Below are positions 5,705-62,482 of a stretch of DNA of 64,000 bases, piece after piece; position 1 is the first letter of the stretch; each line of letters opens with the position of its first letter. The notes beneath the pieces are model-generated. The model saw only the letters and a program-made list of their open reading frames with translations, had not been told where the DNA came from and did no database searches. Made by a program: the position numbers and the translations under genes. The stretch comes from a virus (Duplodnaviria; Caudoviricetes). The stretch lies in the IMG/VR virus record IMGVR_UViG_3300032218_003260, one strand, 5' to 3'.

Positions 5705-5753
5705 TTATCGCGCGTCGGCATGGTCGTCCGTGACCATCGCCGGGCGCGGATAA
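5705..5753 (-). promoter_or_regulatory. Hairpin with a CsrA-type ACGGAC hexaloop
   Basis: Minus ATGGTC-ACGGAC-GACCAT apex; UCACGGACGA at 5724-5733 fits (A/U)CANGGANG(U/A); 13 nt upstream of the ATG at 5692. Confidence 0.55.
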
Positions 5754-5760
5754 AAATAGC

Positions 5761-6612
5761 TTACGACGCAACTACCGAGCGCAACTTCTTGTGCTCAGCC
5801 AGAATGTTGCCGGCCATGTCGTAGCAACCGTCGCAAGCAGCCAGAAACGCCGTCGCAGCCTTGAGCTGATCCATCGGCAGCGTCGTCGAACCAGACGGCC
5901 CGCGCGCGACCGGCCGCTTCGGGGCGGCGCTCTTCGCCGGCTCTTCCTTCCGCTTGTGGCGCGCCGCGTCGCGGGTCCGCTCTTCGCCCGCAGCTACGGC
6001 CTCGCCGCGCTTTGCGGGAGCTACGCCTGCTTTCTTCAACAGCTGGCTCACTTGAGCCGGGCTGACTTCAACACGCTTCTTGGCGAGCGCCGCCACGATG
6101 TCAACACCGCGGAGCGAGTCACCAGACTCCTGCCGACGCTCGATCTCCTCGCGGATGTGATCGGCGCCGCTTTTCTTCTCGGCCATATCTTTCACCTTCC
6201 CTTTTCTGGTCTTGGTCGCATTGGGCGCCTCGACCGGGTCATCGTCTTCGTCGGCTTCCACAGTGGAGTCGACAGCTTCGTCCGAAACCTCGTCGCCGTC
6301 TTCCGGCTCATACTCGGTTTCGTCGTCTTCGTCGTCGGTCAGCTTCGCGGCCGTCGAGCGGACGTCTTCGCTGCCTTCGTCTTCGTAATCGGCTTCAGCG
6401 TATGCCGCTTCGTCGTCGACTGTGTCTTCTTCAAGCTCGGCGTCGACATTTGCGTCAACGTCTTCGTCGTCGTAATCTTCTGGTGTCGCGAACCGCATCC
6501 CTGTGGTTCCTTTCTCCTTCTTGTCTTTCTCTGCGGGTGCCTTGCTGGTTGCGCCCGGAAGTGGCTTTCCCCACAGATTTGCCGGACTCACAAACTCGTC
6601 AGCCTTGGCCAT
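5761..6612 (-). CDS. Acidic low-complexity protein with a C-terminal putative DNA-binding domain
   Basis: AGGAGAGG RBS before the ATG at 6612; D/E-rich N half; ADHIREEI...GVDIVAALAKKRVEVSPAQVSQLLKK and DQLKAA..F motifs. Confidence 0.7.
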   Translation of the reverse strand: MAKADEFVSPANLWGKPLPGATSKAPAEKDKKEKGTTGMRFATPEDYDDEDVDANVDAELEEDTVDDEAAYAEADYEDEGSEDVRSTAAKLTDDEDDETEYEPEDGDEVSDEAVDSTVEADEDDDPVEAPNATKTRKGKVKDMAEKKSGADHIREEIERRQESGDSLRGVDIVAALAKKRVEVSPAQVSQLLKKAGVAPAKRGEAVAAGEERTRDAARHKRKEEPAKSAAPKRPVARGPSGSTTLPMDQLKAATAFLAACDGCYDMAGNILAEHKKLRSVVAS

Positions 6613-6720
6613 AGTGTCCTCTCCTAAAGCGCCGCCGGCCGAAACATTTCGGCCTCGTTGTGCGGCTAAATGAAAAATACACCACCGGAAACAAAAATCA
6701 ACTATTGCAGAAAACAACCG

Positions 6721-7083
6721 TTATTTGCTGCTTCTGTAGTTGTCCGGCACGTTGCCATCTTTAGTGCGAAGTGCGCCGGCATTTAGCTCGGGCCACTTCT
6801 CTAGCGAGTGGATGGCGCCGATGACATTCCATGCAGCGTGACCAAGATGGTCTTCACTGCGGTCGCCGTTCAAGAAATTGTAGATGTGCGCAATCGCGTG
6901 GTTTAGCAGGTCAGAGACGGGCATGCCGTTTTCCCAGTTGTACGGGCCAAACTTTTCAGCCCCTTCGTGGTAAGTCTGCGCTAGCGCGCGTAGACCAATC
7001 GGCGAAATTAGATCGTAGCGCACGGCGTCGCAATCGGCGCTGCGTACGGCGCCAGTGTCGTACTCGTGGCGTTCGTTGCTCAT
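6721..7083 (-). CDS. dATP/dGTP diphosphohydrolase domain protein (DUF5664)
   Basis: TGAVR...RYDLI.P..L..LA.....GAEK.G..NW..G......HA..H......EDHL.HAAWN. Confidence 0.85.
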   Translation of the reverse strand: MSNERHEYDTGAVRSADCDAVRYDLISPIGLRALAQTYHEGAEKFGPYNWENGMPVSDLLNHAIAHIYNFLNGDRSEDHLGHAAWNVIGAIHSLEKWPELNAGALRTKDGNVPDNYRSSK

Positions 7084-7391
7084 CAGAGATAACCTTCTTG
7101 TCGGAAAGCAAAGTAGAGCCGCGGTTCGTCGTTGAACGCGACTGTGCCGCGAACGCCGTCAGATTTTCGAATCACGTGCACGTAAGGCGGCTCAAAGTGC
7201 GACACCTCAAATGTGTCTAGCAATTGCTCGCTGTTCCAGACCTGCTCGCCATACTGCTCTTGCAGCACGGTACGAATCTCATCTGATCCGCGGCGGTCAA
7301 GCTGCTCTTTGATAACATTACGCAACATCACGTGCCCGATATCGAGCGGTATCTGCGTTGCGAGTTCTTTAGCTTTGTGTGGTGTCGGCAT
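7083..7391 (-). CDS. Conserved hypothetical protein
   Basis: QVW..EQL...FEV..FEPPYV.V.RKSDGVRG...F...PR.YF.F motif; start moved to the ATG at 7391. Confidence 0.65.
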   Translation of the reverse strand: MPTPHKAKELATQIPLDIGHVMLRNVIKEQLDRRGSDEIRTVLQEQYGEQVWNSEQLLDTFEVSHFEPPYVHVIRKSDGVRGTVAFNDEPRLYFAFRQEGYL

Positions 7392-7767: not shown

Positions 7768-7780
7768 TAAACATCCTTTG

Positions 7781-8128
7781 TTACTGCGCGTAGCGCGATT
7801 CTTTTGGTAGCATGCCGTCGATTACGTTACCGAGGCGTGTGGCTGCTAGGCTGTAGATCACTACTCGAACGGTAGTTTCGACCATACCGCCTATTCCTGT
7901 TCCTGCCAAGAGCAGCAAAAACAAATACAGTGGCGCGTGATATGACTTGCAAAACGGGCAGTTGATCAGCTCTAGCAGTTTGCCTTTTGCCGTGTTGTAG
8001 GGCGTCACATCTTGAAGCGCCTGCGCGTAAGCTCGCGCTGTTTCAAACAAAGAACCCTTGTGCCACACCTCGATGATCGCACCAGCTGCGAGGGTGACAG
8101 TCAAAAAATCTAAAGCGCTAATCGTCAT
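7781..8128 (-). CDS. DUF1360-like membrane protein with CPFC motif
   Basis: Hydrophobic helices flanking ELINCPFCKSYH; ATGA overlap with the upstream gene. Confidence 0.6.
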   Translation of the reverse strand: MTISALDFLTVTLAAGAIIEVWHKGSLFETARAYAQALQDVTPYNTAKGKLLELINCPFCKSYHAPLYLFLLLLAGTGIGGMVETTVRVVIYSLAATRLGNVIDGMLPKESRYAQ

Positions 8129-8567: not shown

Positions 8568-8573
8568 AGTATA
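8568..8573 (-). promoter_or_regulatory. Putative -10 element TATACT
   Basis: About 35 nt upstream of the ATG at 8531; the same hexamer recurs in intergenic DNA near 12770, 59303 and 62478. Confidence 0.35.
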
Positions 8574-8737: not shown

Positions 8738-10669
8738 TTGTTATTGTGGTTCATGGATAAACCTAATCAAACAGTTACTGAAGCAGTTGACATGCCTTCC
8801 GTAGGCGTGCAATCACTTCTACAAGAATTAATCTCAATCGACGTGACGGATGTACATTCTGTTCACGCGCGAGCGGCTGTTTTGCAGCAGCTCGCCGGTC
8901 GGCATGCTTTCCCGTCACTGGAACCGATTTTACCGCTAGTTCTGAATCTTAACGGGCGCCCGTACAGCATTCAGAATCATATGCCTTTTTCCCCACTTTT
9001 CCGGCTACTGACGCCGAAAAATCAAGTGTGGTGCACGGGGCGGCAGGTATCAAAATCGACCAGCCTAGCAGCGCACGGAGTTGTAGTTGCCAACTCTCTC
9101 CCGTTTTTTAAGACGTTATTCATCACACCGCTGTACGAACAGATACGGCGGTTTTCGAATAACTATGTGCGTCCGTTTATCGACCAGTCTCCTGTGAAGT
9201 CGCAATGGAGCGGCACGACGACCGAGAATTCAGTTCTGCAAAGATCTTTTAAGAACAATTCAATGATGTTGTTCAGCTTTGCGCTTTTAGATTCGGATCG
9301 TGTGCGCGGTGTTTCTGCAGACCGTGTGTGTATCGACGAAGTTCAGGACATGGATCCTGATCACGTGCCGATCATTCAAGAAACGATGTCTTACTCCAAA
9401 TGGGGGACTAGTTATTACACAGGAACGCCGAAGACGCTAGATAATTTAATTTACGGATTGTATAAACGATCATCACAAGCCGAGTGGTTTATACCGTGTC
9501 ATTCATGCAAGCACTGGAGCATCCCTTCGCTTGAATATGACTTGGACAAAATGATCGGCCCATACAGCGTGCATATCAGCGAGAAGTATCCGGGCACCGT
9601 CTGCGCTAAGTGTCAGAAACCGATCAGCCCAAGGCATGGTCGGTGGGTGCACAGATATCCCGAACGCCGCTGGCAATTTGCCGGGTATCACGTACCACAG
9701 ATGATACTACCGCTTCATTTCTCCGACCCTGAAAAGTGGTCAACTCTATTGTTGAAAAGAGAAGGGTTTGGGAACATGACCCAAGCCCAGTTCTACAACG
9801 AAGTAATGGGAGAAAGCGTTGATACCGGTCAGAAGCTCATCAGCGAAACTGATTTGAAGGCTGCGTGCGTGCTAGACTGGGAAAACAAGAAAGAACCAGA
9901 CCCTAAGTGCTTTGCAAATCTCTCGAACTACAAACATCGCATCCTTGCGGTCGACTGGGGCGGCGGCGGAGAAGCAGGTATTAGTTTCACCGTGCTTGCT
10001 GTGCTGGGGTTCCGCCCGGACGGGACCGTCGACACGCTTTGGGCCAAGCGCCTGCTTATTGGCGGCGATCATTTGGCCGAAGCTGTTGAATGTATGCGCT
10101 GGTCTAACTTGTTTAATTGCGATTTTGTTGCTCACGATTACACGGGTGCCGGCACGGTCCGCGAAACGGTCATGGTGCAGGCAGGATTTAATCTAGAGCG
10201 AGTCTTGGCGATGCGGCTCGTTCGTTCCGCATCGCAAGATTTGATGGTGTTCAAACCACCGACAGAGATCAATCATCGGGCACACTATAGCCTCGACAAA
10301 ACGCGGTCGTTGCTGTACACGTGTCAGGCGATCAAGCTGAAGCAAGTCCGTTTCTTCCAGTACGATTGGTCGTCACAGGATTCGCCGGGCTTGGTGTCGG
10401 ACTTTCTTGCGTTGGTAGAAAGTAAAGCCGAGTCTAGACTAGGCGGCGATATTTATACCATTACAAGGAACACGTTGTTGACTGACGACTTCGCGCAAGC
10501 TGTTAACCTAGGCTGCGCCGCTCTTTGGCACGTGAATAACGCGTGGCCTAATTTCGCGGAGATCGCTGGCGTAGCGCGGTTAAGCGAGCGTGTTGTCAAA
10601 GCCGAGACGCCGATGGATGACGACTGGGCGGATGACTCCATCGGGCGAAGCTACTTTGGCGGTTACTAG
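8738..10669 (+). CDS. Terminase large subunit (GpA-like)
   Basis: Walker A GRQVSKST, Walker B CIDEVQD, coupling motif GTPK, two CxxC (CHSC, CAKC), FYNEVMGE, nuclease AVDWG. Confidence 0.9.
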   Translation: MLLWFMDKPNQTVTEAVDMPSVGVQSLLQELISIDVTDVHSVHARAAVLQQLAGRHAFPSLEPILPLVLNLNGRPYSIQNHMPFSPLFRLLTPKNQVWCTGRQVSKSTSLAAHGVVVANSLPFFKTLFITPLYEQIRRFSNNYVRPFIDQSPVKSQWSGTTTENSVLQRSFKNNSMMLFSFALLDSDRVRGVSADRVCIDEVQDMDPDHVPIIQETMSYSKWGTSYYTGTPKTLDNLIYGLYKRSSQAEWFIPCHSCKHWSIPSLEYDLDKMIGPYSVHISEKYPGTVCAKCQKPISPRHGRWVHRYPERRWQFAGYHVPQMILPLHFSDPEKWSTLLLKREGFGNMTQAQFYNEVMGESVDTGQKLISETDLKAACVLDWENKKEPDPKCFANLSNYKHRILAVDWGGGGEAGISFTVLAVLGFRPDGTVDTLWAKRLLIGGDHLAEAVECMRWSNLFNCDFVAHDYTGAGTVRETVMVQAGFNLERVLAMRLVRSASQDLMVFKPPTEINHRAHYSLDKTRSLLYTCQAIKLKQVRFFQYDWSSQDSPGLVSDFLALVESKAESRLGGDIYTITRNTLLTDDFAQAVNLGCAALWHVNNAWPNFAEIAGVARLSERVVKAETPMDDDWADDSIGRSYFGGY

Positions 10670-12287: not shown

Positions 12288-12289
12288 TG

Positions 12290-12742
12290 TTATTTGCCGT
12301 CTGTTTCACAGTAGATGACGATTTTGCAACCGCACTGTTCTGCTAGTTTGACAACGTCGGGCGCATACACCGCCACGATTTGGTCGCGTTTGATCGCGCC
12401 GGCGGTGATCAGGGACTGCAACCCAAGTTTAGCTATGCCGCGACGTCTATACGCAGGGTCGACGAAACACTCGACGGTTTGTGCGGTAATAGGCCGACCT
12501 TTGAATTTTTCTGGCCACGGGCGCGAACCGACCCAGCCGGCTAGCGTGTCGTCTATCCACACGAGTGCCAGAGCCATTTCTGGATACGGCTGCTCATGGT
12601 TGACGTGCAGATAACGCTTGCTGAGTTCTTTTTGAATTGAACTGTCGCTACCCGAGTTTGGCCACGACAGTCTTGTCATGATGGCCGTGACATCGACCAG
12701 TCCAAGCTGGTTAATGTCTTTGATTTTGATAGTAATATTCAT
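12290..12742 (-). CDS. GNAT-family acetyltransferase
   Basis: Motif A FVDPAYRRRGIAK; GGAGG RBS before the ATG at 12742. Confidence 0.8.
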   Translation of the reverse strand: MNITIKIKDINQLGLVDVTAIMTRLSWPNSGSDSSIQKELSKRYLHVNHEQPYPEMALALVWIDDTLAGWVGSRPWPEKFKGRPITAQTVECFVDPAYRRRGIAKLGLQSLITAGAIKRDQIVAVYAPDVVKLAEQCGCKIVIYCETDGK

Positions 12743-12777
12743 GCTGCGCCCTCCGCGACACAGCATGAAGTATACAA

Positions 12778-12850
12778 AGCCGGCGGTCGGATTCGAACCG
12801 ACGACAGGCAGTTTACAAAACTGCTACTCTACCAACTGAGTTACGCCGGC
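12778..12850 (-). tRNA. tRNA-Thr (anticodon UGU), CCA not encoded
   Basis: Cloverleaf: acceptor GCCGGCG/CGCCGGC, D arm ACTC/GAGT, anticodon stem GCAGT/ACTGC with loop TTTGTAA, T arm GTCGG-TTCGAAT-CCGAC. Confidence 0.95.
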
Positions 12851-17458: not shown

Positions 17459-17890
17459 GGCTTTTTTCTTCTTACGCGGAGCCGGGCCGAACAACGACTT
17501 AATATGTCGGAGTACGGCCGCTTCGCGCGTACGTTTGTAGTTTACATTGTCCCACGCTTGGTCGGCGTGTTCGACACCGCGGCGCGCGGCCTCGACGTCG
17601 TGGATAAGGCTGTAGTCCGGGTTATACCACTTAAATCCGCGACCCTTGCCTTTGTTCCATCTAAAGTCTGCTACTGATATCTCGTAGACGGTGTGCGTTA
17701 CGGTGTCGAGAATTATTTGCGCAGTGCATTTAAACTCTCGTGGTTTGTTCGGCAGCCGGATAGTCGCGTCAAGTATTTGCGCGTTGTTGCCGTAACAAGC
17801 CCAGCAGTACGCGGCGCTATCGGTTATCAGAAAGCGACAAGCGTTAAAAAAGCGATTAACCCGCAACGCGCCACAGTGATCAAATGTCAT
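17405..17890 (-). CDS. Hypothetical protein with basic C-terminus
   Basis: 161-aa ORF; ATGA overlap with the upstream gene. Confidence 0.6.
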   Translation of the reverse strand: MTFDHCGALRVNRFFNACRFLITDSAAYCWACYGNNAQILDATIRLPNKPREFKCTAQIILDTVTHTVYEISVADFRWNKGKGRGFKWYNPDYSLIHDVEAARRGVEHADQAWDNVNYKRTREAAVLRHIKSLFGPAPRKKKKASAPRKLAKALKRKQIVR

Positions 17891-18129
17891 TTTGATATCA
17901 AGTCCTTCAGTTTGCGAAATAGTTGCCGCACGGCTGGCATAAGCTGCCGCTTTCTTGACGGCTCAGCGCCCGGCTCAACGTTCTGAGAAGATAAGCCGCC
18001 AGACTGCTCTTCTAACTCGCTTCGGCAGTAGTCGAGGTAGAGTTGCCAGTTGTCATAGGCGTCTCTATCTTCTGCTCGTTCGTAGGGGATGTAGGGGGGC
18101 TCGTCGATGAGTCTGTCGTTCCAGCCCAT
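17887..18129 (-). CDS. Hypothetical protein (80 aa)
   Basis: ORF tiles between neighbours; overlaps the csrA tail. Confidence 0.5.
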   Translation of the reverse strand: MGWNDRLIDEPPYIPYERAEDRDAYDNWQLYLDYCRSELEEQSGGLSSQNVEPGAEPSRKRQLMPAVRQLFRKLKDLISK

Positions 18130-18302
18130 TTCTTTTTGTCCTTCTGTTTGCTCCCGTCAACTAACTCGCCGCGCACGATCGATGTCGTTTGCGGCGCGGT
18201 AAGACCAATTTTGACGCGGTCGCCTGTGATGCTTAAAACTTTCACAACAATCCCGTCGCCAATTACGACTTCCTGTTCTTTCTTCCTTGAGAGTACCAGC
18301 AT
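18012..18302 (-). CDS. csrA: Carbon storage regulator CsrA/RsmA-family translational regulator
   Basis: MLVLSRK..Q.VVIGDGIVVKVL.I.GDRVKIG..AP....IVRGE; RNA-binding L4, R6 and R44 retained. Confidence 0.92.
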   Translation of the reverse strand: MLVLSRKKEQEVVIGDGIVVKVLSITGDRVKIGLTAPQTTSIVRGELVDGSKQKDKKKWAGTTDSSTSPPTSPTNEQKIETPMTTGNSTSTTAEAS

Positions 18303-20652: not shown

Positions 20653-21027
20653 TCAGTCTCCGGCGGTGCAAGCAATGTACGCATGGTACTGGGCTATAGC
20701 CTCAATGTTAGGATCAATCTCTCTAAAGACTGGCTCATCATCCATAGTGGCCAGATCACCGCGAAAAAGCGCTGTCGTGTACTCGTGATACAGCCGAGCC
20801 ATATCACCACGCAGGTTCTTCTTGGTGAATTTAAGCACGCGCTCCTTCAGAAAGGCGGCGCGTTCCCAGAAGTTCGGCATCAGGTCTAGCTGATCCCGAA
20901 ACTTCTCTGCAGTCTTCTCGAAAAGCTTATGCGCCCTATCAGGAACAATCTGAAACTGGGGCGCGGCTTTTTTGCATCGAGCGGTGACTGCAAGGCGGAT
21001 TTGCTCCGCCGGGGGAGAAAGAAGCAT
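20653..21027 (-). CDS. Hypothetical protein (124 aa) flanked by structured RNA
   Basis: ACGGAG RBS; helical ORF. Confidence 0.7.
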   Translation of the reverse strand: MLLSPPAEQIRLAVTARCKKAAPQFQIVPDRAHKLFEKTAEKFRDQLDLMPNFWERAAFLKERVLKFTKKNLRGDMARLYHEYTTALFRGDLATMDDEPVFREIDPNIEAIAQYHAYIACTAGD

Positions 21028-21207
21028 GCGTTAACTCCGTTGTAACGCGGTAGAGAAGAGCCGCTAATACGATATAGCAGCGACAATAAATATGCCGCGA
21101 TTTTGGCAAAAATTTAGCTGCCGTTCGGAATTCGCGAATTGCAAAAGTGCCTGTCAGTACAGGACTTACGACGCGGTATAGCGTGTTCTGGAAAATGGAA
21201 AATGCAA

Positions 21208-22797: not shown

Positions 22798-22851
22798 AGC
22801 CGTGTCCTCACAGAGTTATGGTCGCATTTTAATCGGCACAAAGAAATCGCG

Positions 22852-24075: not shown

Positions 24076-24076
24076 G

Positions 24077-35588: not shown

Positions 35589-37496
35589 TTACGTTGCGCT
35601 ATAGACGATACCCGTGACGCGCAACACGCCGATTTCTCCGTAGACGTTATCTTCGGCGCGACCGATTGTGATTAGCGCGGTGTCTCCGTGCGCAACGCTA
35701 AAGGCAGCGCTATCACGCGTGATAGCGTGATCAATGAACAAATTTGCGCTTGAATTAAACGTGAGCGCGGCGTCGGTTGTTGCAAGACCTAACCCGTCGG
35801 TTAGCGTAGGGTCGGGCGATGCCAGCGTTCGACGGGTCATATACAGCGACGGCATAACTTTTCTCTGCAGTTGCGTGCCGTCACGCCCGAACAACTGCAC
35901 GCGAATTTTCATCATCAGGTTGTCGCCGAGATTGCTGCCCGGCACGTTAAAACGAAGGCGCAACAACGACGCCTGCCCGCCCGGAAAACCCAGATACGGA
36001 ATGTCCATGTACAGCCGTTCGACCGTATCGCTGAGCCGGATAATCTGCGGCGAGATCTCTCGCTCCACCAGTTGATCCGTATAGTCGATCTTGAGAATGC
36101 CTTGATGCAGTGTTACCGGGCTTGATGTCGTGAGGTTAAACTGTTGTTTTTCCTGCGTGGTCAACACGCGCGGATTTGGACGCGAGCCGGTGATTGCAAT
36201 TTGATTTGATAGCGTAAACGCGCCTTCAGCCAGCCAACCGCGCTTTAATTGATGTCGATTGACGACTCCCTTTAGCGCTTGTCCGCCAGTCGCTTCGGCA
36301 GCGGCAATCTGCAGGTCTAGATTAAGCTGAAGATCCCCAGTCGACGCCGGATCATCCGCGCAATTTGAAATAGCAATCGGGCTTGTAACTGTTGTAGCAG
36401 TAGCGGTGGGCGTGGTCTCTGGTGCCGTACCGTCTACGTCTTTGACGACGCTAGTGACAACGTTACGATCATTACCGGAGAGCATGCGCAGATACACAAC
36501 CGACACGCGCATGTTTTCGTAGCGAGGGCATTCGCCGGTGCCGACCGGATGCGTTGTCGGTGCCGTAAACGGGATATCGCCGGCGCAATTACTCATCCAC
36601 CAAATGCCGTTGGTGTCGCAAATTGCCAAGCCGTTGCGGCCGAGCGGGATTTCGGTGGCGCCGACATGGTCAGCGCCCTTATCCCACAACATGGCCACCG
36701 ACTGAAGCGGCAGCGGCGGCCAAACGTTAGCCAGCGACGAATGCTGACTCAGGTTGTAACCAAACAGAGCGCCGTTCGGGGCTTTGCCGTTAAAAATATC
36801 ATGACTCGCGGGCAGCCATCCGGGCAACTCTGGATTTGGATCGGTGATTACGCGATGACTTGCGCCGTTATGGACGATTGTCGCGGGCGTACCGGCGGGC
36901 TGCGCAACAAGATCAAATCGGTAATGCGTGTGCTCGTCGATGAAGTCGCGAATGTGCGGCATGACCACAACGCGCGGCACCGTCGTGCAGCTGTCTTTCG
37001 GGCCCTGCACGTGGCAGACACTAACCGTGACAGCCGGGCGCTGCTTTACGAGCTTGCCGGCCTCCGACGCCGACAGGTAGTAACGGCCCGGCGTGATTGC
37101 GCCGTCGATAGCGTTGGCTAGTTCGGGAATATCGACAATGCCGCGCAGTACGATATCGCCCAATGTTTCAGAACGTTTGCGTACGCAGATGCCGACGCAG
37201 TCTGACGACGGCTGTACGACTAGTGTTTGCGTGTTGGCGTCTGGCTCAACGGCCGCCAGTGCGGGCTCGTAACGATGCTCGGTCCAGTTCCAGTAAACCG
37301 GCTGTCCGGGCAGTACGGAGCTGCAGATAGTCGCGTTGCTGTCGACTAGGACTTTACCAAGCTCGGCGGCGTCGAGCCGGTCTTTGAGGTAATCCGTGCG
37401 GTCTTCGAGCGTACGGTCTGGGCGTGAAACGACGCCAGCCTGTACAGGCTCGCCCGGATTGACGTGTTTAATATTGTGCAGCCAGTTCCCGGACAT
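35589..37496 (-). CDS. Proximal tail fibre / baseplate-attached protein
   Basis: N-terminal GEPV.AGVVSRP...LEDRT.YLK.RL resembles fibre-attachment N-termini; position after the baseplate genes. Confidence 0.5.
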   Translation of the reverse strand: MSGNWLHNIKHVNPGEPVQAGVVSRPDRTLEDRTDYLKDRLDAAELGKVLVDSNATICSSVLPGQPVYWNWTEHRYEPALAAVEPDANTQTLVVQPSSDCVGICVRKRSETLGDIVLRGIVDIPELANAIDGAITPGRYYLSASEAGKLVKQRPAVTVSVCHVQGPKDSCTTVPRVVVMPHIRDFIDEHTHYRFDLVAQPAGTPATIVHNGASHRVITDPNPELPGWLPASHDIFNGKAPNGALFGYNLSQHSSLANVWPPLPLQSVAMLWDKGADHVGATEIPLGRNGLAICDTNGIWWMSNCAGDIPFTAPTTHPVGTGECPRYENMRVSVVYLRMLSGNDRNVVTSVVKDVDGTAPETTPTATATTVTSPIAISNCADDPASTGDLQLNLDLQIAAAEATGGQALKGVVNRHQLKRGWLAEGAFTLSNQIAITGSRPNPRVLTTQEKQQFNLTTSSPVTLHQGILKIDYTDQLVEREISPQIIRLSDTVERLYMDIPYLGFPGGQASLLRLRFNVPGSNLGDNLMMKIRVQLFGRDGTQLQRKVMPSLYMTRRTLASPDPTLTDGLGLATTDAALTFNSSANLFIDHAITRDSAAFSVAHGDTALITIGRAEDNVYGEIGVLRVTGIVYSAT

Positions 37497-37504
37497 CCTT
37501 GTCC
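37491..37504 (-). promoter_or_regulatory. CsrA-type hairpin over the start codon
   Basis: Minus GGAC-AAGGAT-GTCC; ACAAGGAUGU matches the core of the CsrA SELEX consensus and contains the AUG. Confidence 0.55.
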
Positions 37505-46367: not shown

Positions 46368-49300
46368 TTACTTTCCGTAGTTTGCGCCGGTGCCGCCAGC
46401 CATGTCGACTGGCGGTCCGTTATCTGGGGTATCTTCCATGCGATGACCTGTGGCCGCCAGCACGGCCTCTGAGAGTCCGTGCAGCGTCAACGTGCCGTTG
46501 ACGTTCATATCGCCACCACCGCCGCCGCCCATCCCGCCCGCCGGTCTTGCAGCGTCGTATTGCGAGATTGTGTCGCTGAGGTAGTTGTAACGGGCTTGGT
46601 CTTTTTCATCGTCAAAGTATTCGCCACTCCACCAGCTCGTTTTCTTTTTCTTCTCAAGTTCGCCGAGCCGTTGCCGCGCGGATTGAATCGGGTCAGCCGA
46701 CTGCATGTCAAGGAGCGCTTGTTCGGCTACCAATCGTGTATGCGGTTTTTCAACGACCTGCTGTACTGAGCCGTCCGCCCCTGTAACGTTTACTTTTTTG
46801 GCGCCACCACGTTGTTTAAATTCCGCTTTTTCTTTGGCGGTGCCGTAACGCTCCACGTCGGCAGCGGCTTGCTCTTCTGTATATTCTGGGTTGTACGGAA
46901 CGAATACGCGCTCAGAAACGTCTTGATGACCGCCAAAGACATGCCAATTGGATTCGCCACGAATTTCGCGCATCGATAGGGACGTGCCGGCCATTTGACC
47001 CATTCTGTTAAACGGGTCGTGCACTGTGAATTCTTGAATGTCGCCGGCGTTGCCTGCCGTTTTACCGCCCTGCGCCATCGACTGCCGGCGCTCCATTAAG
47101 TCGGTGCGCCGTTCTTTGTCTTCCGCGTTGTAGTCCAACCAGTTGTCTTTATTTCGTTCTTCGATAGCTGCCAGTTCTTTATCTATTTCTCCTATCGCGT
47201 CGGCGCGGCTTTGTGTGCGTGTACCGCCAGTCGGACCCGCCGGCGTCGGCGGGTGACTTGATTGATGCGACGCCGCCGAATGACCTGCGCGATTCAGCTG
47301 CTGCACCTGCCCGGGCGTGAGATTCTGCGATGATACGCCAGCGCCAGTCTTGCTTTCCGCGATAGCGCCGTGAATACGCTCCATGTTGGCGAGATCATCG
47401 TCGCTTAGGTTGTAGAACATTTTTGCCGCATCAGGCGCTTGCAGCGCGCGGCTGAAGTTCGTCATCGCATCTTGTTGCGCCGCTGGATCCAACTTGTTGA
47501 ACAATTTAACCGCGTCGGCAGATGGCAACGTTAAAAGTTGTTGTCGCTTTTTCTGGTCTGTAAGCGCGTTTTTTAGCGCCGCGCCAGTCGGATCTTTACC
47601 GACCTCGTCGAGCACGGTTTGTTGGTCTGTAGTAACTTTTTCGGTGGCTGAAGCAACACCTTGTCCATGCGCGCGTTTAGCTTCTTCAGCTACACGTAGT
47701 GCGCTAGTAGTGCGACGTACAATAGCTTCTTTGTCTTTACCCATGACCGCGGTTAATTGCTTGCGCGCTTCAGCGCGAGCGGCTTCTGGGTCCATTCCCT
47801 CCATAATGAACTGATCGGTTAGGTGTTGCGTCATGCGCCCCGTCATCGCCAACGCGCGCTCTTCATCAGATTTTCCGACCGTATCACCCATCTGATTTAC
47901 AGCGACGTCTGACATAGCAATGCTAATTTGCCGCAGCCGCTTTTTGCGCTGCGTATCGAACTGCGAATCAGACATACCTTTCGGCCGTAATTTTTCATAC
48001 TCGGCTTTGTCGTAGTTCTTTTCGAGCGAGTCGTAAATGCTTTTGCCGACGTCGGCGGAAATACGATTTGAAGTTGCAGTTCCCCGTTTTTGCGCTTTGG
48101 CGACATCAACCGGAGTTTGCTCCAATCCCGCACCGGCAAGTCCGCCAATATCGCGCGCAACGCGGAGCGCCTGCGCAACGCCGCGGGCCTGCTCTTTTTT
48201 CTCGTCCGATAATCCGCCCCACCCATCCCACGCGGCAGACATCTGTTTTTCAAAGTTGGTGCTGTCAGCGGCCAGCGCAGCAGAAGCAAACTTTTCGATT
48301 TGCGCGGTTGTCGCACCCGCGCCCAGCGTTTGCTGCGCCATAGCTTTGGCGGCCGCCTGCACGTCTTCGGCTTTGCCGGTATTAAAGCCGCGCATAATCA
48401 GATCTGCGCGGTTTCGCTGCTGTTCGTTTTTTGCCCGTTCTGCATCTGTGCTGCCGGCTGCTGTATCAGCAGACTTCATCTTGGCCGCGCCACGTAATTG
48501 ACCCAGCTCGTCAGCTGTGAGCTTTTTACCGGGATCAACGCCGGCCATGATCTTGAGTTGCTTGGCTTCGGCGCCGTCTGGATTCTTTTGCGCGGCGTCG
48601 GCCATCGTGTCGATCTGTTTCTCGGTTACGCTTGCCTGCGTATACATACGCGCTGCCGCCACAAGTCCTTCTTGCATGTCTGGCGCGTAGCCCTGCAGCA
48701 GCGAATCTTCAGAGGCGATATTGAAAATGCGTTTTAACGACTCAGTGCGCGTACCGGCGTTATCGCCGGCTAACCGTTCCAATTCGTCGCCAACGCGCTG
48801 CATAACGCCCGACTCTGTTCCGCGAGAAGCCAGCTTAAATCGATCGGCTCGCCGCTTGTTCATCTCTTCTTTAACTGTGGCTTCGTCGGTAGCGCCCTGA
48901 TGGTGCATTTGTTTATGTGCTTCAATAGACACTCCAGTGCGCTGCTGCGAAATGGCGCTCGTCTCAGAGTACGTCGCCAAAAGCGTGTCGCGGCGGTCTG
49001 ATTCATTCGCGCCGTAAAACGCGCTGAAGTACTGCTCGGCCATACGCTCCGCCGCCGCGCCTTTGAGCCCGCCGCCAGCGCTACTCTTAAAGTACCGCAC
49101 CAGTTCTTCTTTGCCGCGCTTTTCAAGTGTCTTTACGCGCTCTTCCGGCGTCATGTCGGCTGTTTCGTCCATCATGATGCCGGTCATTTTGGTAGCAAAA
49201 CTTGTCGCAAGCGTGCTATTACGTGAGTGAAAATCCTCCTCCGACATACCAGACGGTTTTAACTTTTTGAACTCGTCACTACCCATACGGTCGACAATTG

Positions 49301-51479: not shown

Positions 51480-52450
51480 AAACTTGGTTCAAGCGCCATA
51501 GCTTCCATCGCTTCAACCAACCGCTGGAACTTGCGCAGGTGTGTCGCGGCAAGGCGGCGCGTTACTTCGTGCGCGAGCGCCTTGCTGTGCACAAACTCGC
51601 GCGCAGCCGGGAGCGCTGTCTGATTGGGCTTATCCGGGTTGACGTCAAATTTAAAGTCGCTCAACTGCGGTACGATCACAAGCGGCTTTCCGTTGGCGTC
51701 GTATACGGCGGCTAGTGAGCAGGCCATACGGTACTCAAACAACCTTAAAAACCACTCGGCCTCCGACAAGATCAGGTTATCGTTCTGGTCCAGCAGGAGC
51801 TGTCGCTGGACGTCAAAGTTCTCGTCGGCCAGCATGCTGCGAAACTCCAGCACGATCTTGCCGCCCATCAGCTCAAACCGGCGCGTAAACCGAGACCCGC
51901 CCAGAATCGTGACAAGGAAGTCTTCTTTGTCGCGGTCTGTTACATCAACGTCAAACTTCTGCTGCATGTCCCAGCCGCAGCGTGGGCAGAACGGCAGAAT
52001 GACCATCGGCGGCACAATATTCTCTTCCGGTACCGCTGGCGTTTCATCTGTCGCGGTCTCGGGCGTTGCAGTCGCGGGGGTCGCTTCGTCTGTCGCCGCT
52101 TTTTCACGGTCGTCGATGATTTCGGCGTCCGTGTTCTGCAGCTGCGCGTACATTTCACGCACGCTGTCAGGCATGTTGGCCGTTTCTTCTTCGAACTGTT
52201 CTTTTTGCGCTTTTTTCTTGGCTACTTCCTTGGCTTCTCGCAGCATGGTTTTGATATTTTCAACGTCCTCTTCTTTCATCGCGTCTTTGTCGATCAAAAC
52301 GTCGACGCGCGGCGACGGCGGCAGCGTGTCTTTAATCCGCAGCATGAGCGGTCCAAGCTCGGCCGGAATAGGATCGTCTTTCCGCCAGCCGAACTGCTCA
52401 AGCGTTTTCTTTGTAAAATCAGACACGTAAACGTTTTCAACCAGTTCCAT
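51461..52450 (-). CDS. Tail assembly chaperone
   Basis: AAGGAG RBS; CPRC motif; position just before the tape measure. Confidence 0.55.
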   Translation of the reverse strand: MELVENVYVSDFTKKTLEQFGWRKDDPIPAELGPLMLRIKDTLPPSPRVDVLIDKDAMKEEDVENIKTMLREAKEVAKKKAQKEQFEEETANMPDSVREMYAQLQNTDAEIIDDREKAATDEATPATATPETATDETPAVPEENIVPPMVILPFCPRCGWDMQQKFDVDVTDRDKEDFLVTILGGSRFTRRFELMGGKIVLEFRSMLADENFDVQRQLLLDQNDNLILSEAEWFLRLFEYRMACSLAAVYDANGKPLVIVPQLSDFKFDVNPDKPNQTALPAAREFVHSKALAHEVTRRLAATHLRKFQRLVEAMEAMALEPSFWNGIG

Positions 52451-52464
52451 GGTTATCTCCTTCG

Positions 52465-55967: not shown

Positions 55968-58900
55968 TCAGACAACTAGGTGCAGCTCAATGTTATTGAG
56001 CGGCGCCGGAACAACAAGATCGAGCACGATTTCGATGCGGTCCTTGAGCAAAGGATGAATCTGCAGGGTCCGAATCGCGCCCGAAATCAGCTGCGAGCCG
56101 AGTTCTTGCGTGTTGCCGTTAGTTGAGAGGAAGTTAATCACACTCTTCACTTGGTACTCAAGAACCGAAATCATACCCGGCTGCGCATTCGTGCGGCCGA
56201 TGTACGGGCGCAGACGGCGGTAGAACAGGTACGACATGCTATCAACGTTACGCCGGATCATCTCTTCGCGACGGTTCAGATCAAGGTTGTCGGTCGTGAG
56301 CGCGTGCCGCGTGTGCGGGGTGCCGTCACGATCTTCAGTCACAATCCAGACGCCAGCTTCAGCCATACGGTTCAACTGCGTTTCGTTGAGGTACTTGTAG
56401 GACCGCGAGAAGTCGTCGAAACCGGCGACCTCGACGTTTGTCAGCGGCTGGTGGGGCACCACGCCGCTCACGAGACCCGCGAGGGCCGCCGCGAGGTAGT
56501 AACCGGGCTGAATCGTACCGGCTTCGCCGACCTGATCAGGCCACACGGCGCACACCCGGCGATTCGATAGCGAACCACCCTGCTGCGCAATGTCTTCAAC
56601 AATTTCGTTGCGGTTGCGGTTGTGCCAGACTTCGACGCTTTGCGGAACTGTGACCGCGGCGTCAGCGCCAGAGTACAACAGCAGGGTCGATTCCGAGATA
56701 ACCTGATCCACAACATACTCTTCGTACTGCTCTTCGCCGAAACCGTCGACGGAGTAGTTATAGCGAACGATGTCGCCGGGGCGCACGTCATTCGTGATAA
56801 AGTAGCCGTTGCCCGACGTAACAGTGAGCCGCGTGTACTGCGTGTTAGTGGCGTTCGGATCGTCGGCCAGCGTGGCGAGAACCGGTTCAGTTACCGTCTC
56901 ACCAAGCACACCTTCAATGTTTACGCCTTCACCAACAACCTTTACAGTCGGCACCGCCTTGAGGGCGAAGAAGCCGGCCTTCCAGTTGTTCGCGTACTCG
57001 TTCGACTCGCCGCCGATGTGCGCAGCCCACAGGTTTTGCACCCGGCGGTCAAACGTCATCGGAACAAGGTTATACAGATCGTCGCGACCCTTCAGCCGTT
57101 CCAGCACCTGTACCCACTTGTCGAGGTCGTTACCGAGCGAACGACCCTCTTCGTCGTACTTCTCGGGATCGGCCACGGCGGTGTACTTCACCACAGTACC
57201 GTTGCTGTTGGAGAGCGCCTTGTAAACGCCCCACTTCAGCGGGTTATCGGGGTCGAGCTGGCCTTTGATGTTGTCGAGGTCAGCGACGTCGCTGATCGAG
57301 TTGACCTGATCGGCCAGCTCAGACAGCCACTCGCGATACTCAACATACACCTTGCCGGACATAACCGGCAGCGGCTGTTCGGCGCCGGCGCTTGTCCACT
57401 CGGGGTGGTAGGCGACGATGCCTTCCTGCACGCAGATCTGGGTGTCTTCGTACCAGAAGTTGGTCATCGGGGCGTATCCGATCCGATTCTTTGAGATCTG
57501 GATATCGTCCTTGATGAACAGTTTAAGGTCCATGTCTTCGCCGCTGATCAGCTGGCAAGTTGCTGTGGCCGTAGCGCCTACCGTAGAAGCCGCCGCCGGT
57601 AGATCCGGCGAAGCCATCATCGGGGAGACGCCAGCGTTGTTGGGCATCGTGATTGTCGGGGCCGATGTATAACCAGCACCACGATCCGTCACAACGATGC
57701 CAACAACCTTGTCGCTGTTTTCGCCGACAACTGTTCCAAGAACGGCGTAACCCGTAGCAGTCCGGGCCTGCACGAGATTACCCGTGGGAGCCGAGAACGT
57801 CACTGTGGGAGCGGCGCTGTAACCAGAACCGCCATTAGTGATGCTGACCGGACCCACCTTGTCGACTGGAGCGCCGTCCTGCGTCAGCAACGAGGTCGGG
57901 AGGTCGTCGCGCAGGATGAGCTTGCGCACCGGGCCGGCCTTGCTAGAGTTCACAGTGATGTACCACTTGTCGCCCTTACGCAGGCCAGCAACAGCGTAGT
58001 TGTCTTCTTGGTCAGCAGCGCCAATGAAACGAACTTTTACGCCGTTTGTGCCGATGGCCACGGAAACGGCGTTACCGCCGGCGCCGTCGCCAGTTACTTC
58101 GGTCGGACCGGAGAAATCTAGACCCTTGACGGTGCGCACGGTGATCTCAGGAAGCTGAGCCCATGTGCCGCCCTTGGTGCATTCAACAACGTACGTGTCG
58201 TTCTTGGCGCCGGCATACTTGCCGAGAATGTCAAGATCGGTGGCGACGCCGTTAAGCGATTCTTCCGTCTGGTAGACGCCGTCAGCGTCCGACACCGCCT
58301 TAACCTTTTCATAGGTTTGGTGGAGGTCGAACTTCCACTTCTGACCAACGACAAAGTTGTCGTTACCAGTTGTGGTGAAACGAACCGACAAGCCACGGGT
58401 GCCGACGAACGTCACGCCGTCAGCGTCGTCAAAGTCGTTCGGCTGGATTTCAGCCTGATCGTCGGTGCCGCTGGCCGAAGTGACGCGCAGACGGGCAGCA
58501 TTGCAACCCGAAATCGTGCTCTTGATAACTTCGACAACGTATTCCTCTTCGACGTAGCCGGCGACGAGGCCGTCGTAATCGTTGGCGCCTTCATCGTCAG
58601 CGGTGAGCACCGTAACAGCCACGGCGTTATCAACGCCTTCGATCTGCGTGACAGTTACGTCAACGCCGTTCGGGTTGGTGGCTGTGTAGCTGTCCTGATT
58701 GTTAACGTCAGCGACGGCCGGCAGAATGCGCGACGGAACAAGATCGCTGGCGAAGCCCGTGACGTATGTCTCAAGCACGGTCTCAAGGCAGTCGTTGTCC
58801 GTGCTCACAGTGCGGAGCTGAACAACGTCGCCAAGCTGCACGTCGCGATCGAGGAACGCACTCGAACGCGGGTAGGCAGCTCCGTTCGACTTGAACGAAA

Positions 58901-59246
58901 GCGTGCTGGACTGAATCCAGTTGGTCTTGCCGGGCACGGCGGTGATCGTCGTGTCGCTTTCACCCATGTTGTGGGTGTAGTACTGCAGCATGGCGTCGTC
59001 GACGTAGACCTTAACGTAAGGCAGGTCGACCACCGAGCCGGGCTTGCGCTGCGGCCACGAGTAGCACGTGTCGTTAAGACGATCGTATTGGCCGAGAAGC
59101 GCGTGTTGCTTCTCGTCTGTGTTGCTGTAGCGGTGAAGGATAGCGTGCGGACCAGCGATGTGGGCGCGCAGCGGTTCCGTGATCTCCGTGGGGACGATAC
59201 GGAACTCTTGGAAAACGAGTACTTGTGGTTTTACGTAGCTCGACAT
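55968..59246 (-). CDS. Contractile tail sheath protein
   Basis: C-terminal L...QLNRMAE.GVWIV...TRH.LTT...E..I.RNVD....I..VL..VVPAPLNNIELHL; GGAGG RBS. Confidence 0.88.
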   Translation of the reverse strand: MSSYVKPQVLVFQEFRIVPTEITEPLRAHIAGPHAILHRYSNTDEKQHALLGQYDRLNDTCYSWPQRKPGSVVDLPYVKVYVDDAMLQYYTHNMGESDTTITAVPGKTNWIQSSTLSFKSNGAAYPRSSAFLDRDVQLGDVVQLRTVSTDNDCLETVLETYVTGFASDLVPSRILPAVADVNNQDSYTATNPNGVDVTVTQIEGVDNAVAVTVLTADDEGANDYDGLVAGYVEEEYVVEVIKSTISGCNAARLRVTSASGTDDQAEIQPNDFDDADGVTFVGTRGLSVRFTTTGNDNFVVGQKWKFDLHQTYEKVKAVSDADGVYQTEESLNGVATDLDILGKYAGAKNDTYVVECTKGGTWAQLPEITVRTVKGLDFSGPTEVTGDGAGGNAVSVAIGTNGVKVRFIGAADQEDNYAVAGLRKGDKWYITVNSSKAGPVRKLILRDDLPTSLLTQDGAPVDKVGPVSITNGGSGYSAAPTVTFSAPTGNLVQARTATGYAVLGTVVGENSDKVVGIVVTDRGAGYTSAPTITMPNNAGVSPMMASPDLPAAASTVGATATATCQLISGEDMDLKLFIKDDIQISKNRIGYAPMTNFWYEDTQICVQEGIVAYHPEWTSAGAEQPLPVMSGKVYVEYREWLSELADQVNSISDVADLDNIKGQLDPDNPLKWGVYKALSNSNGTVVKYTAVADPEKYDEEGRSLGNDLDKWVQVLERLKGRDDLYNLVPMTFDRRVQNLWAAHIGGESNEYANNWKAGFFALKAVPTVKVVGEGVNIEGVLGETVTEPVLATLADDPNATNTQYTRLTVTSGNGYFITNDVRPGDIVRYNYSVDGFGEEQYEEYVVDQVISESTLLLYSGADAAVTVPQSVEVWHNRNRNEIVEDIAQQGGSLSNRRVCAVWPDQVGEAGTIQPGYYLAAALAGLVSGVVPHQPLTNVEVAGFDDFSRSYKYLNETQLNRMAEAGVWIVTEDRDGTPHTRHALTTDNLDLNRREEMIRRNVDSMSYLFYRRLRPYIGRTNAQPGMISVLEYQVKSVINFLSTNGNTQELGSQLISGAIRTLQIHPLLKDRIEIVLDLVVPAPLNNIELHLVV

Positions 59247-59253: not shown

Positions 59254-59265
59254 GGCCTCCGTGCC
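59254..59265 (-). promoter_or_regulatory. CsrA-type hairpin enclosing the sheath RBS
   Basis: Minus GGC-ACGGAG-GCC, fits CANGGANG, 7 nt upstream of the ATG. Confidence 0.5.
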
Positions 59266-59351
59266 TAAAATTTACGTGTGTGCGGTAGGGCGTTCAGGTC
59301 GTAGTATACACAACTACGGGTTTGCAAAAAAAACACCCTATTTGAAAATTC

Positions 59352-60062: not shown

Positions 60063-60177
60063 GGTCGCTGCCCTTTAGTTTTTGGTCGTAGAACTTGATG
60101 GGTTCAAACAAACTGATTTTCTTGGGTGTTATCCGAATTTTATCGAGTTTCGGTTCGGCGGGGTTTTTGTTGGCCAT
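60025..60177 (-). CDS. Unannotated 50-aa small ORF (MANKNPAEPKLDKIRITPKK...)
   Basis: TAATG coupling to the stop of 60177..61409; fills a 115-nt gap; below the ORF-track threshold. Confidence 0.45.
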   Translation of the reverse strand: MANKNPAEPKLDKIRITPKKISLFEPIKFYDQKLKGSDREHMRRSESAGS

Positions 60178-61409
60178 TAGATATCCCAAAAATTGTCTTT
60201 GGTGTTTGGCGGCGTTTCGACAACACGTGTAGCTACCGGCGCTGGCGCGGCGGTAATTTGTTGCGGTGCGTTGGTATTTACAACAGTAACAAAGTCAACG
60301 TCCGGCCCGTATTCACCCAACTTGCTGTATACAATAGCATACTCGCCGGGGTCTAGCGCGATTGACTGCGCCCAACGCCCATTTGCTGTTGTCGATGTTA
60401 CACCGAGCGCTAGATTTTCTGGCGTTTCAAAGCCGCTAACGTCAAACACGCTTCTAGCGTAGATATAAATAGCCGCGCCGTGAATCGGACACCCGTTTTC
60501 GGTTTTGTAAACAAATCGGTCAAGGCTGCCATAGTTTTGATCTACCGGCACAGAACCACAGCCATCCACCGGCAACGTGGGTCCGACACGTTCCGCTGGC
60601 TCGCCGCCGACTTCGATAGCGTACGCTGTATTGCTGAACGGCAACAGACCCATTTGAATTTGATAAATAATCGGGACGTTGCGAATAGCGGCTTCAATTT
60701 TGATGGTCTCTACTAACCACCGCTCGTCGCTAGAGCCGTTGACCCATATATCGCTTTTGTTAATTGCCGGAAATCCAATAACGCGCGCCGTGATGTAGGG
60801 GTTTTGACGCGTCATACCTTTAAGTTGCGAGTCAACGTCTTCTTGAATTGTCTGTGTTGATAGATCCCAGCACTGTAGCGATAGCGGCGGATGATAACCC
60901 ACTTCAAAGCCAGTGCCGTTGCAGACCGGGCAATCAGAATCCAGTACTTCTTGCGTCAGCTGATCTCGGCACCGTCTGCAAGCCTTCCCAAACCGAAACG
61001 GCTTTAACAGATAACCCGGCACCGCGACGTATTTAAAACGCAGCTGTTCTTTACGAATGATCTCGCGCGCAATCAACCAGTCTTTTTCGGGGAGGTCGCC
61101 GTAGCAGTTGGCTGCCTGCGAAACGTAAACACTGGTCGGTGTGGTCAGTACGACGCGATAATGGTCGAGCAAGTCGTAGCCGGCTTCGCGCCACGCCGGG
61201 TCAGATGCCGTGTAGCCGTTTACTACCGGCGGCCCAACGTTTACCCAGTCAGTAGCGTCTCGTAAGCCGGTCTTGCCCAGCTGCAGTTGAAAAACGTATG
61301 GCCCGGGCTCGTTAAACGTTCGCTCTAACTGCCACCAAACACGAGTCGTGCCGCGGACCATATGGTCTACGGACACGCGGCGGAACGGAAAGATGCGCGA
61401 CTGTGGCAT
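60177..61409 (-). CDS. Neck / head-closure protein with zinc finger
   Basis: CRRC...CPVCNGTGF..GY; D.WV...SDERW.V..I; beta-rich C-terminal extension. Confidence 0.55.
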   Translation of the reverse strand: MPQSRIFPFRRVSVDHMVRGTTRVWWQLERTFNEPGPYVFQLQLGKTGLRDATDWVNVGPPVVNGYTASDPAWREAGYDLLDHYRVVLTTPTSVYVSQAANCYGDLPEKDWLIAREIIRKEQLRFKYVAVPGYLLKPFRFGKACRRCRDQLTQEVLDSDCPVCNGTGFEVGYHPPLSLQCWDLSTQTIQEDVDSQLKGMTRQNPYITARVIGFPAINKSDIWVNGSSDERWLVETIKIEAAIRNVPIIYQIQMGLLPFSNTAYAIEVGGEPAERVGPTLPVDGCGSVPVDQNYGSLDRFVYKTENGCPIHGAAIYIYARSVFDVSGFETPENLALGVTSTTANGRWAQSIALDPGEYAIVYSKLGEYGPDVDFVTVVNTNAPQQITAAPAPVATRVVETPPNTKDNFWDI

Positions 61410-61461
61410 TGAGCTTTTGAGCGGTTAAGCCTAAAAAACTTGTGTAATTCCCAACATATTA

Positions 61462-62454
61462 TCAATACCGGATACGTATCGCGTCTGTGTAGGCCGAGTA
61501 CTTGTACGTCGAAGAAACCTCGCCGTAGCCGCCCTCCAGATTGATACTGGCTTTTGTCGCGCGCACCCATTCCCGGTAAGCCTGCCACCGCGCCTGCCCG
61601 GCTCGTTCGTAGCTGGCTTCTTTATTCTGGTCGTTTACTGACAACCCGGCCGCCGAGTAATCAAATTGGTTACGGCGAAATTGCTCGGCAACCATCATGA
61701 ACAGGTTGGCGCATATCCCCTCCAACCAATGATATCTAAACGGGAAAGACTGTGTGTTGTATACCGCGTCGATGGGCGGCGGAACTTCATTCCAGTACAT
61801 CACCGGACGCGCAATCGCCAGCGCAATCTCGGCGTCATCAAACATCAGGTTGTCGAGCAAGAAACTTTCGCCGGGCGCAGAGTCGCGCAGGTGTAACCGG
61901 ATCTCAGCGATGCTCGGCGGCCCACCCGGCTGATTAACGCTAGAAAACGTACTGCGCGCGATCACCACAGAAAACGTATTAGAGAAGATCACGCAGGGTT
62001 GGTTGTTGGTCTGGGCCGGAATGCTGACCAGCGCCATCTCACCGTAATACACGCCCGGCACGCTCGTGGCGTTGCTAGACAATGCTACGGCTACCTTGCC
62101 AATTTCCGGCGCGACGATAGTAGCCTGTACTTCGACGGGCGGGTTTTGGTTGCCCAGCGACAGCTGCTCTTTCAGGCGCAGAACTACTTTGAAATCCTGC
62201 TCATTCGTGCAGGCAGTTAAACTAACAGGTCGGCCCTCGCGGTCGTGCATTGTCCACTCAATCGTGGCGCACTGGCCCTGCGTCAGCGTAATGGCGCGCA
62301 TGCGCGTTAAAATAGGCTGTCCGTTAACACCGGAGATCGGCGCGCTAACGATGTTCTGGCCGACGCACGGCACGGGTGTAATAGCTTGGCCGTTTGTGCT
62401 GCCGTTGCAACACGGCACAATGGGGTGTTCAGCTGGTGTGGCGATGACGACCAT
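61462..62454 (-). CDS. Head-tail adaptor with an N-terminal Ig-like (BppU-like) domain
   Basis: QGQCATIEW.M.D...PV.L domain, then EIRLHLRDS...N.L.F.D.EI..AI...V.YWN. Confidence 0.6.
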   Translation of the reverse strand: MVVIATPAEHPIVPCCNGSTNGQAITPVPCVGQNIVSAPISGVNGQPILTRMRAITLTQGQCATIEWTMHDREGRPVSLTACTNEQDFKVVLRLKEQLSLGNQNPPVEVQATIVAPEIGKVAVALSSNATSVPGVYYGEMALVSIPAQTNNQPCVIFSNTFSVVIARSTFSSVNQPGGPPSIAEIRLHLRDSAPGESFLLDNLMFDDAEIALAIARPVMYWNEVPPPIDAVYNTQSFPFRYHWLEGICANLFMMVAEQFRRNQFDYSAAGLSVNDQNKEASYERAGQARWQAYREWVRATKASINLEGGYGEVSSTYKYSAYTDAIRIRY

Positions 62455-62482
62455 GCGAGCCTCCGTGTTACAGCTACAGTAT

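Follow-up and report, generated by a model that had tools for sequence, protein, structure and literature searches.

Proteins of the CsrA/RsmE family recognize the RNA motif (A/U)CANGGANG(U/A), as in RsmE-hcnA (PDB 2JPP). Homologues of CsrA/RsmA borne by phages and plasmids are established (Campa et al., 2021, PMC8450108; Sobrero and Valverde, 2020, PMC7366521). Annotated phage examples are found in phages CSP3 and vB_VneS_J26. When one phage csrA homologue, PTXU04_00028, is knocked down, the plaques are smaller (PMC11879866). In the literature searched, the targets proposed for phage CsrA lie in the host only, and no cognate sites within a phage genome are described. Phage csrA genes are common. 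Here, we examine a 64,000-nucleotide stretch of viral DNA (Duplodnaviria; Caudoviricetes; IMG/VR record IMGVR_UViG_3300032218_003260), hereafter the window, that carries an intact csrA gene on the minus strand (18012..18302). The csrA-carrying jumbo phages to which it belongs share a conserved class of hairpins that hold the Shine-Dalgarno (SD) sequence in a hexaloop at about 10% of genes. In the three complete family genomes analyzed, some 20-27 of about 250 genes place the SD GGA at hexaloop positions 3-5, closed by a stem of 3-13 bp. Control of these phage leaders by CsrA is plausible, and the sequence comparisons set out below leave it slightly short of an even call.

The virus record behind the window is 76,643 bp long, and its bases 12683-76643 are positions 1-63961 of the window. 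In this record, 95 genes, nearly all on the minus strand, were called with our own caller from codon bias and ribosome-binding sites. IMG/VR holds more than 25 related contigs (L006-L031). By sequence comparison, the 76.6-kb record represents part of an uncultured freshwater jumbo myophage of about 205 kb, because relatives in IMG/VR measure 193-205 kb and several of them are near-complete. For several, completeness is put at 96-100%, and two carry terminal repeats; where such repeats occur in relatives of the window phage, they are direct. Most members of the hairpin class lie in the 128 kb beyond this record. An earlier note on the window had listed eight minus-strand sites of CsrA type on or near translation starts, seven as hairpins with GGA in the loop and one (62460) as unstructured, and all eight sequences are present at the coordinates it gave.

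Two definitions of a hairpin were applied, a loose one (stems of 2-5 bp around any 4-8-nt loop) and a canonical one, in which GGA occupies positions 3-5 of a hexaloop (NNGGAN). The SD-matched null was built by swapping the left and right flanks between genes. Under the canonical geometry, 27 of 168 SD GGAs sit in hairpins in G006, a complete relative that is nearly identical to the window phage where the two overlap, against 8.6±2.7 expected (P<0.001). The same excess is found in G009 (25 vs 9.6 expected, P<0.001) and G008 (20 vs 8.1 expected, P<0.001). Stems of at least 4 bp reach 3-4 times expectation in these three genomes, and the excess persists when only Watson-Crick pairs are allowed (G006, 18 vs 2.8; G009, 14 vs 2.9; G008, 12 vs 2.6). 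In contrast, no excess of the canonical geometry is seen in lambda (2 vs 3.6 expected), in T7 (1 vs 1.9), or across the 1052 genes of 63 unrelated viral contigs (51 vs 40.8; 11 vs 14.4 for stems of at least 4 bp). In the contig of the window phage, 7 of 58 SD GGAs have this geometry against 3.2 expected (P=0.035; internal GGAs, 5.4%), an excess that on its own is small and weak, the geometry being one of several tried.

One alternative holds that nothing special marks these sites, which would be ordinary SD sequences with chance complementarity in their flanks. Results with the loose definition agree with it: in this contig, a stem of at least 3 bp encloses 57% of the 58 SD GGAs, compared with 55% of the 684 internal GGAs on the coding strand, and the flank swap predicts nearly what is observed at minimum stem lengths of 3, 4, and 5 bp (30 vs 25.5, 12 vs 11.1, and 4 vs 4.7 expected). 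Shuffles with the GGA held fixed give no excess either, and across the nulls there is one nominal exception, at exactly 3 bp. In the loops of 909 stable hairpins, GGA is not over-represented and ranks 48 of 64 trinucleotides, while ANGGAN hexaloops counted genome-wide with position ignored show no enrichment (7 vs 4.3 expected). Moreover, six of the eight listed sites fold no better than shuffles, and four are non-conserved or trivial. For the class as a whole, however, this reading is contradicted by the strong canonical-geometry excess in three complete relatives but not in the controls, by the inheritance of the hairpin state between orthologues, and by covariation at two sites, so that we regard it as very improbable; it does hold for the listed sites at 7770, 22800, 37491, and 62460. 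The enrichment over an SD-matched null that the earlier note had anticipated is absent under the loose definition (57% vs 55%) and, under the canonical geometry, is modest here and strong in the complete relatives (20-27 vs 8-10).

The hairpins behave as an inherited trait whose stems change. Between G006 and its orthologues in G008, a hairpin is retained at 9 of 19 hairpin genes but appears at only 2 of 106 others (p=3e-7), and between G006 and G009 at 5 of 7 against 4 of 62; the stems of orthologous hairpin leaders have often changed. The stems are all different, and hence the class does not consist of copies of one cassette. The genes that bear these hairpins in G006 are mostly blank in PHROG annotation. 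The loops in G006 have A at position 1 in 15 of 18 hairpins (48% among all SD GGAs), A, C, or U but never G at position 2, G at position 6 in 14 of 18, and a C-G closing pair in 10 of 18. The resulting consensus, C-A-[A/C/U]-G-G-A-G-G, is the CsrA/RsmE motif CANGGANG. A mere extension of the SD would be expected to favor A at loop position 2, unlike the A, C, or U observed. In the A-N-GGA rule, the base that varies is precisely the one at which CsrA/RsmE accepts any, which fits CsrA recognition better than a plain SD extension.

A second alternative accepts the hairpins as real but independent of CsrA. They could display the SD, stabilize the 5' ends of the genes that come first in transcripts, or serve another reader, such as a RegB-like GGAG nuclease or, at the hairpin at 5705-5761 described below, RNase III. 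The targets of the phage CsrA would then be confined to the host's mRNAs or Csr small RNAs, for takeover or anti-defence. The intergenic gaps before hairpin genes, with a median of 47.5 nt as opposed to 9 nt before other genes, suit 5' untranslated elements, stability, or SD display, and published proposals for phage CsrA concern host manipulation, including repression of CRISPR-Cas (PMC8450108). However, neither display nor stability would need a loop held to A-N-GGA whose variable base falls where CsrA tolerates any, and lambda, T7, and the 63 control contigs lack the excess. As for other readers, no RegB-like gene was identified, although no search aimed at RegB was made. We consider this alternative a real possibility, leaning somewhat toward the unlikely side.

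Two of the eight listed sites, at the starts of a GNAT gene and a sheath-like gene, belong to the class. The GNAT-leader hairpin (12738..12769, minus strand) has a 13-bp stem and a hexaloop, GCGGAG, that contains the SD, and the AUG at 12742 lies inside its 3' arm. The gene that follows (12290..12742, minus strand) encodes a GNAT acetyltransferase (Pfam Acetyltransf_1, E 1.8e-8). The region 12730-12790 folds at -24.9 kcal/mol (z -3.0 vs dinucleotide shuffles), and the stem is kept with different sequences in 11 distinct relatives, for example, CUGUGUC/GGCGCAG, GUUGGUC/GACCUGC, and UCAGCC/GGCUCA. Six of its 13 pairs have changed in both partners, and pairing holds in 90.8% of cells vs 32-47% when the partner is slid, a level of covariation that none of 500 shuffles reached. 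The G-U pairs assign the hairpin to the coding-strand RNA. Across relatives the loop is [G/U/A][C/A]GGAG, and in four of them it is UCACGGAGGA (ACGGAG). Because the GNAT hairpin begins at a conserved, promoter-like TATACT box and sequesters the AUG, it could also regulate alone, as the CsrA-independent alternative would have it. A tRNA-Thr (UGU) gene (12778-12850, minus strand) stands directly upstream of the TATACT box and the hairpin, and relatives have a different tRNA at this place.

The sheath-gene hairpin, GGC-ACGGAG-GCC (59254..59265, minus strand), likewise holds the SD in its hexaloop, upstream of a gene for a tail-sheath-like protein of 1092 aa (55968..59246, minus strand; PHROG tail sheath, E 2e-9, residues 912-1018). 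This 12-nt block is conserved in all 26 sequences, as GGC-A[C/U]GGAG-GC[C/U], even where protein identity falls to 48%, in contrast to the flanks, which diverge on either side. Its outer pair is GC in 18 sequences, GU in seven, and AU in one, and is broken in none of the 26. Orthologous sheath hairpins are found in G008 and G009.

A third conserved hairpin lies apart from any start site. It is a long, interrupted hairpin (5705..5761, minus strand) in the intergenic region after the gene at 5761-6612, and its tip reads GGUC-ACGGAC-GACC (5720-5737). The GGA is 32 nt upstream of the ATG at 5692 and overlaps no SD; that ATG has no SD, and in most relatives the first gene after the hairpin (5384-5692) also lacks one. 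The earlier note had put this site, 5724, among the hairpins at or just upstream of starts; what survives of that claim is a conserved GGA-hexaloop hairpin, not its placement on a start or an SD. The region 5700-5760 folds at -27 kcal/mol (z -4.0 vs dinucleotide shuffles), four of 13 pairs are compensatory, and the relative L039 presents the same ACGGAC loop on a wholly different 10-bp stem. In ten sequences the loop is A-[C/U/A]-G-G-A-[C/A/U], with A, G, G, and A invariant. An AUG beside the hairpin tip, at about 5721, is not in frame, and relatives do not have it. With a stem of about 20 bp in an intergenic region, the hairpin also resembles phage RNase III processing sites such as those of T7, which again favors a reading without CsrA. 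If CsrA does bind the 5705-5761 hairpin, it would affect the stability or processing of the mRNA of the operon downstream (2980-5063, minus strand), a cassette in which a gene with a weak match to DUF1257 is joined by a DUF2997 gene and one for an AAA ATPase.

According to covariance-model searches, the GNAT and 5724 hairpins are each present in a single copy per genome; beyond these, the models matched nothing else in the window, nor in 30 loci or five complete relatives. Neither the GNAT nor the 5705-5761 hairpin scores as a canonical intrinsic terminator. Taken over the eight sites, GGA hexaloops are borne out at 5720-5737, 59254-59265, and 12738-12769, but not at 7770, 37491, 62460, or 21030, the last of which has a 9-nt loop. 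Covariation of stems in relatives, another expectation of the earlier note, is seen at 12743 and 5724, and the outer pair at 59254 varies among GC, GU, and AU without ever being broken, whereas the stem at 22800 is lost.

The putative reader is itself well preserved. The csrA open reading frame (18012..18302) is intact and matches Pfam PF02599 (E 9.4e-20), with residues 1-49 (about 18156-18302) scoring 70.8 bits against a cut-off of 27 for a profile of 53 positions. The phage protein aligns to CsrA/RsmE structures of B. subtilis, Geobacillus, RsmE, and E. coli (1Y00, 2JPP, and 1T3O among them), the alignment with RsmE and CsrA spanning residues 1-48. In 13 homologues, the RNA-binding residues of beta1 and beta5 (L2, L4, R6, R44, and E46) and the GxxAP turn are invariant or nearly so. 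The claim of an intact csrA is therefore upheld by both the Pfam match and the conserved residues. A csrA gene was found in all tested family genomes at least 93% complete (G005, G006, G007, G008, G009, and weakly G010).

The last ~40 codons of csrA form a low-complexity tail that runs out of frame across the next gene and is not a conserved extension. Homologues have 96 aa or 64-66 aa, and their frames diverge through indels past an A-rich lysine tract. The 96-aa tail thus looks like an out-of-frame read-through with no functional extension, because the length of csrA in relatives, 64-66 or 96 aa, depends on the indels in that tract. In the other frame, a conserved 80-aa gene (MGWNDRLIDEPPYIPYE...LKDLISK; 17887-18129, minus strand), whose protein begins MGWNDR, overlaps the last 118 nt of the csrA open reading frame and was missed by the gene callers of the IMG/VR contigs.

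If CsrA reads these hairpins, a dimer of the phage's own protein, perhaps together with host CsrA, would clamp the A-N-GGA loop. The clamped loop would block 30S loading and thereby repress or time the translation of the subset of genes that bear hairpins. The earlier note had gone further, proposing that CsrA times both accessory and virion genes as a phage translational regulon; such timing may occur. What stands of the proposal is a csrA-encoding phage with a conserved class of A-N-GGA-G hexaloop SDs that is absent from control phages, whereas only two, or at most three, of the eight listed sites are in the class. In its fullest form, the proposal becomes a self-contained viral Csr circuit with its own CsrA, about 20 cognate SD-hexaloop operators per genome, and no sponge. 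As phage CsrA accumulates, it would shut off or time a gene subset that includes the sheath-like and GNAT genes, and it would also dock on the non-SD hairpin before the AAA-ATPase operon. We put this circuit forward tentatively, as an arrangement that is possible but rather more doubtful than not.

Several observations weigh against control by CsrA, in addition to the modest excess within the window and the long gaps before hairpin genes. The link between csrA and the hairpins is a co-occurrence only, within a single lineage, and amounts to one evolutionary observation. It is also imperfect at the GNAT gene, where the hairpin is missing in csrA-positive G005 and occurs in G009 only as a G-U-rich version. 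Moreover, an SD held in a loop can simply aid ribosome access. Classical targets have two GGA sites, which a dimer can bridge; leaders of hairpin genes (-60..+30) contain on average 2.15 GGAs, their own SD GGA included, vs 1.32 in other genes, which may or may not amount to a second site. Among relatives, the leader of csrA itself has no conserved GGA. Finally, no sponge RNA of the CsrB/RsmZ type was found, the only Rfam match in the window being the tRNA.

No conserved second GGA site was seen in the GNAT, sheath, and 5724 leaders, and none of the intergenic regions of this contig or of the complete relative G006 exceeds 2.5 GGA per 100 nt. A scan of IMG/VR for the 15-mer TGGTCACGGASGACC returned 113 scattered matches, which by a rough estimate is about chance level and so carries no information. 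The GGA density of the window peaks in two large fibre genes (22852-28645, minus strand), which encode long collagen triple-helix repeats (Pfam Collagen, E 2e-56); this peak is an artefact of the coding sequence, with no sponge RNA behind it.

Apart from 5724 and 12743, the other six listed sites have fold z-scores from -1.3 to +2, and the claim of CsrA-type hairpins on starts, which holds for the conserved hexaloop SDs of the GNAT (12743) and sheath (59254) genes, fails at 7770, 22800, 37491, and 62460, where the SDs are ordinary or non-conserved. At 7770..7782 (minus strand), an ordinary SD has a trivial A-U stem, is nearly invariant, and is less structured than its shuffles (z +2.05). The ordinary SD at 22800..22813 (minus strand; z 0.0) has lost its stem in relatives and its GGA in one of them. 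At 37491..37504 (minus strand; z +0.2), a 4-bp stem encloses AAGGAUG, in which the GGA abuts the start codon, the real SD being an upstream GGAGG; the site hardly varies among relatives, of which one shows a change that may be compensatory. The unstructured, ordinary SD CACGGAGG at 62460..62467 (minus strand) is CCGGAG or AUGGAG in relatives, or, in two of them, GAGGUGA without GGA, and so behaves as an SD and not as a GGA-specific site.

The remaining listed site, near 21030, is a 6-bp inverted repeat, GCGUUA/UAACGC, around CAACGGAGU (21028..21048, minus strand), which has a 9-nt loop and lies directly before the ATG at 21027. This leader (z -0.8) hardly varies even where protein identity is down to 63%, the sole change being ACGGAG to AGGGAG in the loop, and such invariance makes the sequence comparison uninformative on covariation. 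Farther upstream of the same leader, at about 21050-21085 (minus strand), a second hairpin covaries (GCUGCU/AGCGGC, GCUGCU/AGCAGC, GCUACU/GGUAGC) and, with a pyrimidine run after it, looks like a terminator.

Weaker and less conserved members of the class in the window are found at 6618-6629, 22800-22813, and 46370-46381. The last of these, ACU-ACGGAA-AGU (46370..46381, minus strand), is a weak SD hexaloop hairpin that came from the geometry scan and is not among the eight listed sites. Distant relatives use a GGUGA-type SD in its place, and neither this hairpin nor an SD hairpin upstream of the contig gene at window position -11671 is kept in them. A start-codon hairpin at 52438-52455 was also considered and set aside, as it is not conserved.

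Four TATACT boxes (12769-12774, 59303-59308, 62478-62483, and 8568-8573, minus strand) precede four starts by 29-62 nt, and relatives keep them as GTATACT. The box at 62478 comes straight after a canonical terminator, and that at the GNAT gene abuts the 5' base of the hairpin; TATACT is probably a phage-specific promoter element. Elsewhere in the window, genes for a large terminase on the plus strand (8753-10669) and for a baseplate wedge protein are recognizable. The gene at 6721-7083 (minus strand) encodes a protein whose match (PF18909, E 3.5e-16) is to the N-terminal domain of dATP/dGTP diphosphohydrolase, a family linked to phages with modified DNA bases. In a Megablast comparison, no GenBank phage matched the window phage at the nucleotide level. 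Many of the public sequencing runs that share a small fraction of words with the window are labelled as freshwater or lake-water metagenomes, and no RNA run is among those listed.

Phage-encoded control at ribosome-binding sites has a precedent in T4, where RegA is a translational repressor and RegB is a nuclease that cuts GGAG in early SDs. The window phage would share with T4 a phage-encoded, post-transcriptional control of a gene subset at ribosome-binding sites, its side of the comparison being a candidate. Unlike RegA and RegB, CsrA belongs to another protein family with another mode of recognition, and no RegA or RegB homologue was identified in the window phage, no search having been aimed at RegB. 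The closer likeness is to RsmE-hcnA of Pseudomonas and CsrA-glgC of E. coli (PDB 2JPP), in which, as at the phage sites, the SD GGA sits in an A-N-GGA-N hexaloop on a short stem that is often closed by a C-G pair. The tip at 5720-5737, UCACGGACGA, and the GNAT loop of the four relatives with UCACGGAGGA match (A/U)CANGGANG(U/A) exactly. In contrast to these bacterial systems, the regulator is encoded by a lytic-type jumbo phage, some 20 genes of the phage are its candidate targets, and a sponge RNA was looked for but not found. Cognate operators on a phage's own start sites would be new for Csr control. The family offers candidate cis-targets inside a phage genome that are statistically supported and come with natural stem-swapped variants, and these variants make the role of phage csrA in infection a testable question. 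With the phage and plasmid CsrA homologues described before (PMC8450108, PMC7366521, PMC11879866), the window phage shares a CsrA-family gene on a phage; unlike those homologues, its csrA is shared by all the near-complete genomes tested in a jumbo-phage family, where enriched hairpins on the phage's own starts go with it.

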